Below the pieces are notes generated by a model. That model saw only the letters and a list, made by a program, of their open reading frames with translations. It did not search any database and was not told the DNA's origin. The position numbers and the translations under genes are program-made. DNA of 64,000 bases from Mayamaea pseudoterrestris (taxonomy: Eukaryota): assembly GCA_027923505.1 (NCBI GenBank), contig BROI01000002.1, forward strand, positions 1,426,001-1,490,000. The letters run 5' to 3'. This document shows, piece after piece, positions 55,886 to 62,238 of this stretch (position 1 is the stretch's first letter; every line of letters begins with the position of its first letter).

Positions 55886-56542
55886 TTCAAGCGCATGCGC
55901 AGCATTGTGTCGTTACGCCGCATTATTGAGCGATATGTGCAAGTATGAGCATCACCGTGTCACAGTATTGCTGGACAAAGCTAGCTTGTATTTTCCAATG
56001 AGCCTGTCCACTGGTATAATAGACCACACAAATTGCCTAATATCACCAAAACGAAACATTCGACGATAACGGTCGGTGCCGGGATGGTGCAACAAGGGTT
56101 ACGCCGACGGTAAGCCTAAGCACTTGGCGGCACATGACGCTCCGTCTGCACCTCGATGGCATTCGAGAGCTGACTGTTAAACGGCATTCACATTGGAGAT
56201 GAGTGGATAATTGCGCGAGCGTGGAATGTTCTCGCACCTTTAATTCACGTTCCTTCCTTTGGAGTTTATAGAGCGAACCGACACGCTTCTATGTGGGTCC
56301 AGTGCTATTGCGTTTGACCGTGACCGATAGAAATGTCTTAACTGTAAATAAGGGGGACCCGTGACTGACAGTGAGGAGAATTCAACTGCTATTGTGTTTA
56401 CCGCAATCCCAACGTTTAAATCGCGCGAGATTAACCGGTACTTTACTTTTACTTTCGACCCTTTCGCAAAGCTCGGTCCAGTCAAACTACATTTTTTGAG
56501 CCATCGCGATATAACCAGAGCAGCAACACCTTGATAATCAGC

Positions 56543-58165
56543 ATGTCAGCCCAGCACCAATCCGTGCAGCGCAAAGCAAGTAGCGGCCAATATACTTGGT
56601 TGGATGCAAAGCTTGCCAACGACCGAAGCCATCCGAGTACCAACACCGACCGTCTTTTCCGCACAACTATACGTGAGCCCCACAGCAACGATGTGACCAA
56701 TTTTGAATCCGTTTCCGACTGGCTTCTTAAAACTCTGCGGGATACACCTCATTTTTTGGTGCGTGTTGCCCGCCGCGCAGTCCCTGCAGGCGTAGGAGGC
56801 TGCTTACTTGATTCTGAAATTGGCCGCATGCTTGTCCTCGTTGGCAATGTGAAAGTTCTCCCCAAAAGAGTTCCTCGGTGGACTGTCTCCGTCACGAATG
56901 TGCTTGCGGAGGATGAATCAAAGCAGCATGGGTATGCCCACAGTCCAGGTGGATCAATATGGGAGCTTGCCGGCGCACTCGAGACTCGAGCACCAGTTGT
57001 CGTCTTGGCCAAGTTCTCTGGCACCTGCGGACTTAACGAGCGTAATATTGTAACAACGCATCTGTTTTGCGAAGACAACGAGGATATTTTAAGTGTGCCG
57101 CGAACAAAGGTCTATCCTACTTTCATGGAAGCTCAGCTGGAACTTAATTTGCGCGTTGCGTGCGCAGATGAGCTGCAGGCAACAAACAACACTATCGTTT
57201 CAGAAGCACAATCTGAGGAAGGAGCGCATGCAACGTTGAATCAGCATCCAGCTGCTGCACAGAATGTTGCGACTGCGATTGCTGCGGCCGTGATGGATGA
57301 GAAAGAAGCGACGGAGACGCTGGTGGAATCTTCCAAAAGTGGTCATCACCCCGTGGAGATTCAATTTGAAAAACCAAAGAAGAAGCCCAGGACGAAGCAA
57401 AGGCAGAAGGGAAAGAGCGATCCAAACGCTGTAAAGCAACCAATGAATGGATTTCTGGCATACTGCAACGATTTTCGAGCAGAAAACCCGAATTTGATGC
57501 CTACGGAGGTTGCAAAACTTGCGGGGCAAGAGTGGAAAATCTTGGATGAAACGAAAAAGGAATCGTATCTTAAAAGTGCCCAGATCCGAAAGGCGAAGTA
57601 TCGAGAAGATAAGAAATCATATGAACTGTCCAAGGCAGTGGCGGCGGTGGCATCATCATCACTATCATCATTGACGTCGGCCATGGTAGAAATGAACAAC
57701 AAGAGCAAGGGCTCGGCGTCGACGGCTACCCATCAGAGGAATTCAGAGAAAAAGGCAGAGTCATCATCACGGAAGACTACCGATATTGTTGCAAGTAAAA
57801 ACACTGTATCGGGAGAGGAGTGCAGCAAAACAGGTATCGTGTGGAAAGTCCACTGCAGTGACAGTTCCGAAACAAGAGATGACGACAGCTCAAGCGACTA
57901 CGACATTGCAAAGGACGAGTGGAATGGCGACTCAAGTGACAGTTCCAAGGCAAGCGATTACGACAGCTCAAGCGACAATGACATTACAACGGAAGGAGCA
58001 AACGTCTGCACGGCTGCCAACAAACCGAAGATGGCGTTAAAGTCACCTGTAGCGGCGGAAACGTGCGGCAAAAGGAAGTCGCAAAGTGGCTATAAGCAAG
58101 GTGGGAACCAGCTTTTGTGTTGTGATTCGCCTGCTCGTTCGTCGGCAATGCCAGAGATACCATAG
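56543..58165 (+). CDS. HMG-box protein with uncharacterised N-terminal region and Ser/Asp-rich tail
   Basis: DPNAVKQPMNGFLAYCNDFRAENPNL...EVAKLAGQEWKILDE.KK..Y...A...K.KY is a canonical HMG box. Confidence 0.85.
   Translation: MSAQHQSVQRKASSGQYTWLDAKLANDRSHPSTNTDRLFRTTIREPHSNDVTNFESVSDWLLKTLRDTPHFLVRVARRAVPAGVGGCLLDSEIGRMLVLVGNVKVLPKRVPRWTVSVTNVLAEDESKQHGYAHSPGGSIWELAGALETRAPVVVLAKFSGTCGLNERNIVTTHLFCEDNEDILSVPRTKVYPTFMEAQLELNLRVACADELQATNNTIVSEAQSEEGAHATLNQHPAAAQNVATAIAAAVMDEKEATETLVESSKSGHHPVEIQFEKPKKKPRTKQRQKGKSDPNAVKQPMNGFLAYCNDFRAENPNLMPTEVAKLAGQEWKILDETKKESYLKSAQIRKAKYREDKKSYELSKAVAAVASSSLSSLTSAMVEMNNKSKGSASTATHQRNSEKKAESSSRKTTDIVASKNTVSGEECSKTGIVWKVHCSDSSETRDDDSSSDYDIAKDEWNGDSSDSSKASDYDSSSDNDITTEGANVCTAANKPKMALKSPVAAETCGKRKSQSGYKQGGNQLLCCDSPARSSAMPEIP
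57857..57995 (+). repeat. 78-bp-period coding duplication in the acidic tail
   Basis: SDSSETRDDDSSSDYDI / SDSSKASDYDSSSDNDI; agtgacagttcc starts at 57857 and 57935. Confidence 0.8.
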
Positions 58166-58776
58166 CCAGCACCGATGGGGCGCAAGGCTGCTGGCAAGAA
58201 GGAGAAAGATGAACTCAGAGTAAAATTGTGGTGTGCTCGGGGCACCTGCAACGCATTATCATGTGATATGAGCGTGTGATATACCAACCATTATCGACGT
58301 ATCGTGCGACTACATGCGCAAGACCTATCCCAGGAGCTTGCTGAGTAAAAATAAAAAACTTATACACAGCGTTAAAGTTTTAACGCTATAACAATGTAAA
58401 AGCATCTAGCTTGAATGATGTTGCTACTGCACACTCTACTAATGCATAATACAGTGGTTTCGGCAATTCGTACGCACGATGGGTAGCTGGGAGCTATCCC
58501 GTTGCGACATATCAATGCAGATGCTCGAGCCATCATCAATTTCCCTTTAACCGATCGAAATGAAACATTGACTGGTTGCCTGATCAAGCCTGCGATTTAA
58601 CTCAAAAGATCTGCCTATATTTGAAAGCTACTGTACTCTAGTAAAGGAATCAGTAGACGAAGCAAAAGCTTGATAAGAAGTTGATGCAAAGACTCGCGAC
58701 TGGAATTCTTCGGCAGCAGCAAACGTCATTCGCTCGATTTTACAGTCCTACGCGCTCCAACAATCTACCAACTACC

Positions 58777-60753
58777 ATGAAACTTCGTACTCTTCCATAC
58801 TACTCGACGGCTTTCATTGCGGTTGGTGGTGCTACACTGTCAAGTCGATTTGCATCAGCTTGGGTCAGCTCCTTAGTAGCCGCTAGAGCAACGACTCGTT
58901 CCATTCGCATGCAGTCACGCTTTTCCACCGTCGCACCTTCAGTGGACGAGTCGGCAGACCCAGCAGCTTCCAGCGACACCCCATCTGCTGCTAGTACCAC
59001 TGTTTCGGAGGGCACGATTGTCGCTCGATTTCCGGGAGGCTTGACGGCGGTGCGGCTCACGGACGGCGACGCGCGCATCGGCAGCGACGGTACAAACGCA
59101 CCTATCACACTGAGACCATCCCTCGGCGGCGCCATTACCTCGTTTGATCTGCAGGGACGAAACGTGCTATTTCCGGATGGAACGAGTGGTGTGGTGGTGG
59201 CGCATCGTCCGCCCGTCGTGTTCGTCTTGAGCGATGGAGGTGCAGAAGCGCTTGCTACTACCAATGGCTTGGTGAGGGTGCAGAGCGACGCGGCTACCAT
59301 TTCCGTTTCACCAAATCAGCGGATATTCGACTTGCACGGCAAAAACTTGCATGAAGAAAATGCAGATTGTATAAATAAAGTTGGTGATAGCCAAGCAGCA
59401 GCAACTAAGATGACACGACCAATATTTGCTACCATTCCACAAGTCAAGGACATTTCTCTCATTAACAAACCCATGCTGACGGGTGTCACCATGATGGACT
59501 CGCTAGCGCCCATTGGCAAGGGACAAAACATGCTCATGATTGGTCACGACTTGAACGCCATGCGGGGCTACGTCATGGACTGCCTTGAAACGCAGGTGCG
59601 TGAAGACAACGTGAAAATTATTTACGCGACCACGGAGAACGAAAGGACGACGCTGGAGGAGCTGACCAAGCGTGGCATTGAAAAGAGTGTGCACATTGTT
59701 GCTCCGACGCGTCACGAAAAGGACGATGCGTCAAAAGCAGCGGAAGCAGTGGCAATTGCCAGTGCGGCATGTTCTGTTGCTGAAATGTATGCCATAGAAC
59801 ATGGTATGGATGCATTGGTTGTCGTAGATACGATTGACCTGCACAAGCAGCTATGGGACATTTCCACACGCGTCCTTGTGGATGTCTTTGGCGTCGATGC
59901 CGTCGTGGAAGCGGATCGAACGGGTGGAGCCTCCTCGGAAATGAGAGTCTTCTTTTCATCACTGGTACAGCGGTCGGCGCAGTACAAGGAAAGTAGAGGA
60001 GGCGGTAGCGTCACCTTGTTGTTGCTGACATCCATTCTTAATGAAGGTGCATCGGCAGACACTGTCTTTTCGGAGCAAGACTTTGCGCAAAGCCCCGAAA
60101 AGATCAAGTTGCGAATCAAGCTCCTGACTGGTCGAAGCATTCCTTTGACAGCAGCAAATCTTCGCAAGGTTGACATTCCTATTCCATCAGATGGAAGTCG
60201 TCTTTTGGCATTGCAGCACGTGGATGAACTCATATCCATGTCGGACGGTCAAATATGGCTGGATGAGCGCTTGGAATCGCAAGGCCAGTGGCCGCCTATG
60301 AACCCGCAGCGTTCCGTCACTCGCATTGGAATTGGCGCCGACACTGACTCACGGGCCGACGCTCCCGCTCTTCGTCGGCTTGATGGACGCTTTCGGTTGG
60401 ACCTTTCGCAAGCATTCAACATGGTGGGTGCAGACGAGACGGCTGCCACCAAGCGACAAGTCCAACGGAAAGATGCCCTGCTACTTGCCATGCATCAAAT
60501 GCCCGGAGCAGGTGGTCGGCGCTTGTCAGAGTCATGTGTGCTACTGCTGGCGGCCACGACGGGCATTTTGGATGCCGCTGTAGCTTCCGGAGCAACGCCA
60601 GGCTCTGATCGAGGGGAGCGAGCAGTTAAAGGCTTGCTCAAGCATGTTTTGCAATCGGCTCCGGATGCGTTGGCAACGATTGACCAAACACTAGATATGA
60701 CTGACAAGGTCAAGGAGCCAATCATGGCTGCCTTAAATTCATATTCCGTTTAA
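58777..60753 (+). CDS. Divergent F1 ATP synthase alpha-subunit-like protein, nucleus-encoded with plastid-type presequence
   Basis: PMLTGVTMMDSLAPIGKGQ, A.MY...G.DALVVVD, LVQRSA...GGGSVT.L, LISMSDGQIWLD, PPMN..RSVTRIG and RLDLSQ align in order with AtpA motifs. Leader ends ASA-W. Walker A is absent. Confidence 0.8.
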   Translation: MKLRTLPYYSTAFIAVGGATLSSRFASAWVSSLVAARATTRSIRMQSRFSTVAPSVDESADPAASSDTPSAASTTVSEGTIVARFPGGLTAVRLTDGDARIGSDGTNAPITLRPSLGGAITSFDLQGRNVLFPDGTSGVVVAHRPPVVFVLSDGGAEALATTNGLVRVQSDAATISVSPNQRIFDLHGKNLHEENADCINKVGDSQAAATKMTRPIFATIPQVKDISLINKPMLTGVTMMDSLAPIGKGQNMLMIGHDLNAMRGYVMDCLETQVREDNVKIIYATTENERTTLEELTKRGIEKSVHIVAPTRHEKDDASKAAEAVAIASAACSVAEMYAIEHGMDALVVVDTIDLHKQLWDISTRVLVDVFGVDAVVEADRTGGASSEMRVFFSSLVQRSAQYKESRGGGSVTLLLLTSILNEGASADTVFSEQDFAQSPEKIKLRIKLLTGRSIPLTAANLRKVDIPIPSDGSRLLALQHVDELISMSDGQIWLDERLESQGQWPPMNPQRSVTRIGIGADTDSRADAPALRRLDGRFRLDLSQAFNMVGADETAATKRQVQRKDALLLAMHQMPGAGGRRLSESCVLLLAATTGILDAAVASGATPGSDRGERAVKGLLKHVLQSAPDALATIDQTLDMTDKVKEPIMAALNSYSV

Positions 60754-61053: not shown

Positions 61054-62238
61054 TCATGTGCAAGTGAGGCATTTGCCTCTCGTAAAGTTGAACAATGGAT
61101 TCTCATAGTCGGCCTGATAAAACTGCTCCACTTTCATTTCAATCTGCGGCGAAAGCCACTTCCAGTGCTTGAAGGCCGCCCAAGTAACATGCTCGCCAGC
61201 CGCTTCAATCGACTGCGATGCAAAAATGCTAGAGTTTCCATGTTTGCCCCAGCCACTCCTGCCGTAAGTGTCCCAAGCATTGATACGCTGCCGCTTGGTT
61301 TTGCTCCAGCTATTCAGTGACTCCAGCAAAGCCTTGGCATCCTCCGCCGCATTTTCAACATGCAAGACTCGGTCAATATACGGCCAATACTTTAAATCCA
61401 CTCGCTTGTGCTGCGGCGTCCAGTGCTGATCGTCGCAAATGGCAGCGAGTCGAAGAAACCCAGAAGCCGAATCGGCAGCCTCGTAGCAATGTTTAGCATC
61501 CAGCAGTGAATTGTCTTCGGGACAGCAGCGATCAATGATATGCCGATGATCATTCGATAGCGCCTTGTCCAGAAAGGAGCTGAGGAAGCGTTGCTTTGGC
61601 TCTCGCACCATGATGGCTCGCGTCCAATCTGGACTCGTCATTATTGTAGACGCTTCCCTTAACGTAAAATTGTACAAGTACAATAGGCCGTTGGTGTCTG
61701 GATTATGCGGAAGACCAAGCTCGGCATCCTGTGATAACCAGTCGTCATGATTCATGATGCGTCGAAATAACTGCTTCCAGACGGTGCAGCCAACCTTGGG
61801 AATGGTGAAAAAGACGAGCTTGAGCGAAGGAATGACAATGGGTGATGAATCCCAATTGTCAGGGTTTTGAAAGTATATAACGTCGCCTGCTTTGACCAAA
61901 TCTTTTTGTACACCGGATTTTCGTCTGGAGAGAGGTCGAAAGCGTTGCTTTGGTCGTAAAAAGTAGGCCGGATGATTGACTGGGGCACCGTTCAAGCCAT
62001 CAAGCGGCAGCAACTGCCTTGATGAGCCATCCAGAAGCAGCATTTCGCTTACATTGAAAATCAAAACGAGAAAGACGCATGCTGCTGGAACTAATGATAT
62101 ACTCTTGCAGCTCTTCGCCGGCTGTCGGTAGGTAGGAGAAGGCTCGGTGCCTAACATATCTGTCATGGTGACTACCGGTAGTACTTGTAGCACTTGTGGT
62201 TGATCTTCTCGCGTTTCAAAATGCCGTTGGAATATCAT
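61054..62238 (-). CDS. Golgi-type carbohydrate sulfotransferase (Sulfotransfer_2 family)
   Basis: TM segment, 5'-PSB motif FFTIPKVGCTVWK, 3'-PB motif VREPKQRFLSSFLDK, HW.PQ and Y..DY. Confidence 0.88.
   Translation of the reverse strand: MIFQRHFETREDQPQVLQVLPVVTMTDMLGTEPSPTYRQPAKSCKSISLVPAACVFLVLIFNVSEMLLLDGSSRQLLPLDGLNGAPVNHPAYFLRPKQRFRPLSRRKSGVQKDLVKAGDVIYFQNPDNWDSSPIVIPSLKLVFFTIPKVGCTVWKQLFRRIMNHDDWLSQDAELGLPHNPDTNGLLYLYNFTLREASTIMTSPDWTRAIMVREPKQRFLSSFLDKALSNDHRHIIDRCCPEDNSLLDAKHCYEAADSASGFLRLAAICDDQHWTPQHKRVDLKYWPYIDRVLHVENAAEDAKALLESLNSWSKTKRQRINAWDTYGRSGWGKHGNSSIFASQSIEAAGEHVTWAAFKHWKWLSPQIEMKVEQFYQADYENPLFNFTRGKCLTCT

Follow-up and report, generated by a model that had tools for sequence, protein, structure and literature searches.

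A nuclear gene for a probable xATPA, an F1 alpha-like protein with a degenerate Walker A motif, a retained arginine finger and a conserved insertion, in Mayamaea pseudoterrestris

The window analysed here is a stretch of 64,000 nucleotides from Mayamaea pseudoterrestris (assembly GCA_027923505.1, contig BROI01000002.1, positions 1,426,001 to 1,490,000 of the forward strand). It carries an intronless gene that, judged from its sequence, is nuclear and encodes a third protein of the F1 alpha lineage, one that is non-canonical. An open reading frame (ORF) scan of the window found the forward-strand frame uninterrupted at 58681..60753, and residues 67-655 of the product (Table 1) align to the orthologs as one unbroken stretch. 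We are highly confident that the product is xATPA. The family has already been described under this name in a July 2026 bioRxiv preprint (10.64898/2026.07.08.737214), as its available text shows; the gene is no longer new, and the additions of the present analysis are incremental. The G+C content is ~49% throughout the window, which holds 18 ATG-started ORFs of at least 300 amino acids on both strands. The neighbouring ORFs encode an HMG-box protein and a sulfotransferase, and the database copy identical to the window protein is located on a 2.78-Mb contig. These features together indicate a nuclear setting of the gene, as the initial annotation had proposed. The AtpA of diatom plastids is plastid-encoded.

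Pfam, the Protein Data Bank (PDB) search and the predicted fold all show that the product is an F1 alpha-like protein, in line with the AtpA motifs recognised in the initial annotation. The Pfam scan matched PF00006 over residues 236-415 (E value of 7.6e-13, 49 bits vs. a cut-off of 29.5). PF00306 scored only 16.5 bits, under its cut-off of 27, and PF02874 was not detected in the window protein by the sequence scan, leaving PF00006 as the only member of the canonical alpha set (PF02874, PF00006 and PF00306) above its gathering score. A phmmer search of the PDB returned 89 distinct chains at E ≤0.01, the best of which is 9nvl_A (E value of 1.2e-20), and all 60 chains listed of the 89 carry the name of an alpha subunit, 59 of them F-type and the other 'G1-ATPase subunit alpha'. 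AlphaFold2, run on an alignment of 68 sequences, gave a model with a mean predicted local distance difference test score (pLDDT) of 86 and a predicted template-modelling score (pTM) of 0.85. In this model, a disordered N terminus (residues 1-63, pLDDT <50) is followed by a beta-barrel beginning at residue 75, and further by a RecA-like domain, an insertion with four helices and a helical C-terminal domain. The top PDB matches of this model in Foldseek are F1 alpha chains from mycobacteria, yeast, cattle, Paracoccus, Bacillus and the spinach chloroplast, with E values of ~1e-31 to 1e-30, target-normalised TM scores of 0.70-0.78 and identities of 18-20%. An identity as a beta, V-type or flagellar-type ATPase subunit was rejected on the alpha-only PDB matches listed.

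The nucleotide site and the beta-facing side of the product have fared differently. Comparisons were made within a set of 312 proteins of at least 430 amino acids out of 378 fetched, excluding the duplicate model P0002; 212 of them have an anchor span (see below) of at least 60 residues and are counted as insertion-bearing, and the other 100 lack the insertion. At the Walker A position, I-G-D-R-Q-T-G-K-T of 9nvl_A sits without gaps over I-G-H-D-L-N-A-M-R of the window protein. Further downstream, residues 484-516 align gaplessly to residues 341-373 of 9nvl_A, with R516 equivalent to R373 and with S487, D490 and G491 equivalent to S344, D347 and G348. The initial annotation had placed GHDLNAMR near 59542 and SVTRIG, in place of SVSRVG, near 60322, and had concluded that the P-loop is lost but the arginine finger retained; the first motif starts exactly at that position, the codon of R516 is at the second, and the conclusion holds. 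The beta-facing residues are kept throughout the insertion-bearing family (S487 in 211/212, D490 in 211/212, G491 in 208/212, S513 in 207/212, R516 in 210/212 and G518 in 211/212), and each of the six is the residue found in 94/94 true alphas. Several of these positions would lie at the catalytic alpha/beta interface and be needed for cooperativity in E. coli; a paper search on the serine beside the finger gave no direct support. The near-invariance of the catalytic-face residues across the family appears to be new beyond the preprint. Two further residues characterise the family: R390, at the end of a small second insertion, is present in 212/212 members in a column that is a gap in 94/94 true alphas, and W360 is present in 209/212 members, whereas 86/94 true alphas have tyrosine.

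A larger insertion, termed the bump in the preprint, separates the Walker A region from the arginine finger. The anchor span from GSVTLLLL to ISMSDGQIW comprises 77 residues in the window protein vs. 25 in 94 of the 100 insertion-free proteins. The insertion is thus ~52 residues long, close to the ~50 amino acids first estimated ahead of ISMSDGQIWL. The AlphaFold2 model places helices at residues 433-436, 441-452, 459-464 and 470-488, and the core of the bump reads F..DF...R...L....IPLTA.NLRK..IP.P. Among 76 diatom-type sequences, the bump has a mean top-residue frequency of 0.68, with 21/65 columns at ≥0.9; the corresponding means are 0.25 in the leader, 0.45 in the barrel and 0.69 in the initial part of the nucleotide-binding domain. 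A regular expression for the core motif matched 175/212 family members and 0/94 true alphas. Alignment of two bump profiles in hhalign, one of 25 diatom-side rows and the other of 16 rows from a distant clade that keeps Walker A, gave a probability of 98.6% and an E value of 1.2e-15 over 49 columns, vs. 2.4% and 0.019 for the reversed-profile control. By this profile comparison, the diatom-type clade and the distant clade share a homologous bump core. The preprint, in its available text, left open whether the bumps of the green lineage and of the stramenopiles, alveolates and Rhizaria (SAR) are homologous or convergent (10.64898/2026.07.08.737214). The Walker-A-keeping clade is itself unlabelled and has a longer bump; from the Atlas labels it is presumed to be the green one, and if it is, homology holds for the green and SAR bumps. 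In six rows of the two earliest clades, the insertion resembles neither bump profile (hhalign E values of 0.64 and 0.36). The earliest-branching proteins (P0228, P0265, P0237 and P0282-P0285) were seen to keep Walker A and to have an Ala/Lys-rich helical insertion at the bump site; either an insertion arose here twice, or divergence has erased the likeness. An Atlas search with the bump alone gave a best score of 0.87, under the level that counts.

Phylogenetic analysis showed that the loss of Walker A is not a property of the whole family. The motif GxxxxGK[ST], counted by a regular expression on the extracted segment since MAFFT and phmmer place the loop one residue apart, is retained in 34/212 insertion-bearing proteins vs. 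94/100 fetched proteins without the insertion. All of the retained motifs are in distant members (34/92), with none in the close diatom-type members (0/120). A quick IQ-TREE tree (LG+G4) was calculated for 86 family members and 14 true alphas, two of them mitochondrial, from 472 columns that exclude the P-loop and the insertion. The 86 insertion-bearing members separate from the 14 true alphas with a Shimodaira-Hasegawa-like approximate likelihood-ratio test (SH-aLRT) value of 100, in a tree that has many rows of unusual composition, one flagged long-branch join, a sample made of whatever the searches returned and an outgroup without a labelled plastid or cyanobacterial alpha. The phylogeny, which had been named as a check in the initial annotation, thus places the family in a clade of its own. 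Walker A is kept in the two earliest-branching groups and in a clade of 19 rows. The trait changes at least six times on the tree, of which well-supported branches force only three to four, and intermediate loops (G-A-N-G-T-G-K-R and G-E-E-G-T-G-R-R) occur beside a diatom-side member that retains the motif. Also new beyond the preprint, therefore, Walker A appears to have been lost repeatedly rather than once for the whole family. The shared and conserved bump core, together with repeated loss of Walker A behind a fixed beta face, directs attention to the arginine-finger face and the bump motif rather than to nucleotide binding.

The relatives of the window protein extend from diatoms to distant algal groups. 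A word-indexed search returned 334 proteins at E ≤0.001. The best 120, which were listed, are 45-100% identical, and the named relatives among them are all diatoms (Fistulifera, Nitzschia, Seminavis, Pseudo-nitzschia, Cylindrotheca and a Bacillariaceae metagenome-assembled genome). Ten diatom relatives have a mean column identity of 55% with long invariant runs, and thirteen columns are invariant across the whole family (68 sequences). An exhaustive representative search returned 715 proteins at E ≤0.001 and 71 at E ≤1e-30; the identity declines continuously to ~30%, with the insertion still inside one aligned stretch. In the Atlas, the window protein falls in a Bacillariophyta cluster (0.98), followed by two clusters with a Chlorophyta label (0.96 and 0.95). 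Some distant members are longer (P0274 of 935 amino acids, with an extra PF10294; P0353 and P0378 of 892 and 995 amino acids) and may be fusions or merged gene models.

The leader of the protein has the organisation of a plastid-targeting sequence. It contains a signal peptide that ends ASA-W after residue 28, as the initial annotation had read it, followed by a disordered stretch. Among the 76 diatom-type sequences, not one column of the 75 in the leader reaches a conservation of 0.9, and an A-W or A-F junction is also present in orthologs. The leader was judged by a junction rule, without a dedicated targeting predictor; the strict rule asks for a hydrophobic stretch, a small residue at -3, [AGS] at -1, F/W/Y at +1 and no charge in the last ten residues. 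It is satisfied by 50/76 N termini of the relatives vs. 5/320 control windows from mature parts, with W at +1 in 39, F in 7 and Y in 4 of the 50. The 26 misses include about a dozen truncated gene models and several others with an A-W junction by eye, and the window protein itself fails solely through an R at -5. The leader thus indicates entry into the secretory route via the signal peptide ending ASA-W. In true alpha, the N-terminal helix holds the delta subunit. No helix is predicted ahead of residue 75 in the AlphaFold2 model of the window protein, and the lack of a conserved or structured segment before the barrel is in keeping with a protein free of the stalk and argues against a stalk-attached working subunit. 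The plastid targeting first proposed for the protein is borne out by the shared leader, which would be of plastid type, and by the available description of the Phaeodactylum xATPA, whose GFP fusion co-localises with chlorophyll (10.64898/2026.07.08.737214).

The signal peptide is N-terminal only if translation begins at the ATG at 58777, which has an A at position -3; the earlier in-frame ATG has a weak context with a T at this position. The extension between the two start codons is basic and without acidic residues, and could be an alternative start or a 5' untranslated region read through by the gene callers. By eye, an extension ahead of the signal-peptide methionine is also present in several orthologous gene models. 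The four mapped runs consist of contigs that reach into intergenic DNA and have allele- or strain-level differences, and are uninformative on the transcript start and on the ATG in use. One of them, run X1, has two different contigs of equal length over 58700-58971 and 60351-60681, each with 9-13 differences from the window. These look like diverged alleles or strains, with the differences clustering in the leader. Upstream, the HMG-box ORF ends ~610 bases ahead of the xATPA start and has a single HMG box and a Ser/Asp-rich acidic tail. Downstream, the sulfotransferase ORF is convergent with the xATPA gene, with the stops ~300 bases apart.

Table 1. Features of the xATPA-like gene and its neighbours (positions in the window)
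Feature	Coordinates	Strand	Remarks
HMG-box ORF, upstream neighbour	56531-58165	+	544 aa; PF00505 (E 1.2e-12) at residues 301-365
Upstream extension, 31 in-frame codons	58684..58776	+	earlier ATG at 58684 gives the 689-aa database model P0002
Whole xATPA-like coding sequence	58777..60753	+	ATG at 58777; 658 codons and stop; intronless
Signal peptide, residues 1-28	58777..58860	+	reads ...SSRFASA-WVSS; cut between 28 and 29
Transit-peptide-like disordered stretch, residues 29-74	58861..58998	+	unconserved
Crown beta-barrel, residues 75-205	58999..59391	+	predicted strands 75-177; low-pLDDT loops 98-103 and 117-121
RecA-like nucleotide-binding-type domain, residues 206-530	59392..60366	+	PF00006, PDB alignments, model and Foldseek
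Degenerate Walker A GHDLNAMR, residues 256-263	59542..59565	+	gapless phmmer alignment to G-D-R-Q-T-G-K-T
Walker-B-type aspartate D351	59827..59829	+	aligns to first D of alpha Y-D-D-L; D in 202/212
Small insertion GGASSEMR, residues 383-390	59923..59946	+	9-residue gap in the PDB target
Bump, residues 427-482	60055..60222	+	equals A444-V499 of the preprint numbering if offset by 17
Strand ISMSDGQ, residues 486-492	60232..60252	+	after the bump; conserved with true alpha
Arginine-finger motif SVTRIG, residues 513-518	60313..60330	+	aligns to S-V-S-R-V-G; R516 codon at 60322
C-terminal helical domain, residues 531-658	60367..60750	+	second PDB stretch 484-656; helices with pLDDT >90
Sulfotransferase ORF, downstream neighbour	61054-62238	-	394 aa; Sulfotransfer_2 PF03567 (E 4.2e-18)

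The properties of the window protein closely match those of xATPA in the available text of the preprint (10.64898/2026.07.08.737214). There, 222 homologs are reported from chlorophytes, euglenophytes, dinoflagellates, haptophytes, chlorarachniophytes, cryptophytes, several heterokont algae and some labyrinthulomycetes, and none from cyanobacteria, red algae or land plants. Their hallmarks are a targeting sequence, a 'bump domain' of ~60 residues, a conserved arginine and a P-loop that is inconsistent or missing. The window protein is closest to alpha, has the bump at the fixed position, belongs to the separate clade, has lost the P-loop and kept the arginine, and has a targeting leader. The Phaeodactylum xATPA is the product of the monoexonic gene Phatr3_J31465 (UniProt B7FRE6, bump A444-V499), and both it and the window protein are nuclear-encoded, monoexonic, alpha-like proteins of ~70 kDa with a leader, no P-loop and the conserved arginine. 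The bump limits of the preprint correspond to A427 and V482, exactly where the insertion of the window protein starts and ends. Judged by this description and the residue numbering, the ORF is very likely the Phaeodactylum xATPA gene or the ortholog of a close relative.

The experiments described in the preprint (10.64898/2026.07.08.737214), as far as its available text goes, bear directly on function. Surface plasmon resonance gave dissociation constants for plastid beta of 1.2e-8 M for xATPA vs. 2.3e-9 M for true alpha, and a pull-down from lysate with xATPA recovered beta and gamma. In AlphaFold 3 models the arginine lies inside the ATP pocket of beta and the bump excludes a third beta. Four knock-outs made with clustered regularly interspaced short palindromic repeats (CRISPR) showed a growth defect solely at 6 °C, half salinity and constant light ('polar summer'). 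In the knock-outs, the proteasome, ribosome and translation gene sets were up and the plastid atpB RNA ranked higher. The authors offer the role of an assembly factor or regulator of beta as their hypothesis. Of the functions proposed in the initial annotation, docking on beta despite the lost nucleotide site stands, as an in vitro result. Among the roles of chaperone, inhibitor or alternative subunit, the last is disfavoured by the reported absence of a photosynthetic or ATP-synthase phenotype, and an assembly or regulatory role coincides with the hypothesis of the authors. The initial annotation, made from the letters without database searches, had thereby arrived at the interpretation of an experimental study.

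The simplest reading, which is also that of the preprint as far as it is available, is docking on one beta with the bump blocking the ring. In this mechanism the non-catalytic nucleotide pocket of xATPA itself would be dismantled, with Walker A gone and the bump growing from the loop that GSVTLLLL, a strand, leads into. The opposite face, used by true alpha to complete the catalytic site of beta, is nearly unchanged in sequence. xATPA would dock on one plastid beta via this catalytic interface, with the arginine finger in place, and the bump would stop a second beta from completing the ring; the side of the subunit on which the bump sits is taken from the models of the preprint. This would leave xATPA:beta pairs or incomplete alpha2-beta2-gamma-xATPA particles in the stroma rather than a working chloroplast F1 (CF1). 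Such particles may hold on to unassembled beta or to partial F1, or tune either, in biogenesis, turnover or restraint of ATPase activity, and this role would become limiting under cold, low salinity and continuous light. We regard docking on beta in vivo as probable, and the model of capping and regulation as a whole as having slightly better than even chances.

Several points weigh against this reading. In the preprint (10.64898/2026.07.08.737214), as far as its available text goes, the knock-outs do not differ in Fv/Fm, in photosynthesis genes or in the gamma-subunit transcript, which speaks against a role in steady-state ATP synthesis, and the authors themselves consider xATPA to be probably uninvolved in ATP synthase function. 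Beta binding is known there from recombinant protein and the lysate pull-down, not from a native complex. A labyrinthulomycete homolog failed to complement, with no complementation by the same gene reported, and xATPA also occurs in some labyrinthulomycetes, which are non-photosynthetic. For the identification of the gene, the offset of 17 residues to the preprint numbering fits neither ATG of the window. In related contigs, the 34 listed coding variants divide evenly into 17 synonymous and 17 non-synonymous, a weak sample drawn from the 40/116 differences displayed. One of the non-synonymous variants alters Y283, invariant in the ten-sequence diatom alignment.

A rival explanation is that xATPA would work outside the ATP synthase, with the alpha scaffold as a frame, the bump docking another stromal partner, for example one in protein synthesis or turnover, and beta binding in vitro a relic of ancestry. 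The heterotrophic labyrinthulomycetes and the knock-out shifts in proteasome, ribosome and translation sets rather than in photosynthesis or ATP synthase genes would fit such a role, and in the available text of the preprint co-expression does not place xATPA with energy metabolism. The bump core is conserved like a catalytic-type domain and is common to distant clades, and W360 and R390 are family invariants without a counterpart in true alpha. However, the near-invariance of the beta-facing residues in 212 members is hard to explain without a beta partner, beta and gamma are the partners recovered from lysate, and the diel expression of the Chlamydomonas homolog is reported to track the plastid ATP synthase subunits (10.64898/2026.07.08.737214). 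We therefore consider a function wholly outside the synthase unlikely. A true alternative subunit, replacing one alpha in a working CF1Fo under some conditions and altering its regulation, would explain why the full three-domain architecture and the arginine finger are kept, and the available discussion in the preprint recalls a 70-kDa F1-associated protein in Chlamydomonas thylakoid fractions. Against it stand the exclusion of a third beta by the bump in the AlphaFold 3 models, a five times lower affinity for beta, the behaviour of xATPA in ATP1-less yeast, which is reported to be unlike that of true alpha, the lack of a photosynthetic phenotype and the lack of a conserved N-terminal segment to hold delta, so that this possibility is quite improbable.

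The two explanations that deny a plastid function altogether fare worse. A genuine mitochondrial alpha, or a mitochondrial protein started at the ATG at 58684, could draw on the basic extension without acidic residues, on the split of the targeting predictions for the family between mitochondria and chloroplasts and on the annotation of the Chlamydomonas homolog as a mitochondrial isoform, the latter two as given in the available text of the preprint. The initial annotation had named a genuine mitochondrial alpha as a case that would overturn it, and this identity is rejected by the absence of Walker A, the 52-residue insertion and the clade apart from the 14 true alphas including the two mitochondrial ones; given also the poor context of the upstream ATG and the reported co-localisation of the GFP fusions with chlorophyll, any mitochondrial explanation is very improbable. 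For a decaying duplicate under relaxed selection, without function, speak the loss of Walker A and the half share of non-synonymous changes among the listed variants. However, the frame is intact over 658 codons, the conservation over the ten genera-level relatives and the thirteen columns invariant in 68 sequences are high, and 12/17 non-synonymous variants fall within residues 13-139, in the leader and the barrel. With a knock-out phenotype reported as well, a pseudogene or decaying duplicate is rejected by the conservation pattern and hardly credible.

Docking on beta may also be part of a more elaborate function, which we put forward tentatively and hold to be rather doubtful as a whole. 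xATPA would have begun as a nucleotide-binding member of the F1 lineage with a bump of single origin, its nucleotide site would have decayed at least six times, and it would now be a beta-clamping adaptor in which the bump is the working part, a docking site with the core F..DF...R...L..[RK]GI.L....L.K..I..P. If this were true, beta or partial F1 would be shown to a protease, a chaperone or a translational regulator, and CF1 biogenesis would be tied to stromal protein homeostasis in the cold. Whichever function applies, a widespread extra alpha-like protein of microalgal plastids was overlooked until 2026 despite the well-studied ATP synthase, and the window gene is a clean case of the reuse of a dead paralog of a rotary motor.

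Comparison with the canonical alpha of plastid CF1 showed a common three-domain fold, GxGQ turn, Walker-B aspartate, S-x-x-D-G strand and S-V-x-R-x-G finger. The window protein differs from it in the replaced Walker A, the 52-residue bump, the 9-residue second insertion and an identity of ~20%, and further in its nuclear gene, its bipartite leader, the unreached PF02874 and PF00306 and the lack of a conserved N-terminal segment. The B subunits of V- and A-type ATPases are non-catalytic hexamer partners without a canonical P-loop; they are stoichiometric and close the ring in a working enzyme. They are not the nearest relatives in sequence, since 60/60 listed PDB chains are alpha. A parallel in green algae is the Chlamydomonas ATP1B (Cre10.g419050), which by the available description in the preprint is a green-algal xATPA (10.64898/2026.07.08.737214). 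The F1-like ATPases of mycoplasmas, as far as the available descriptions go, resemble xATPA in being alpha and beta paralogs recruited beyond ATP synthesis. However, they are bacterial, form alpha-beta sets of their own and still hydrolyse ATP.

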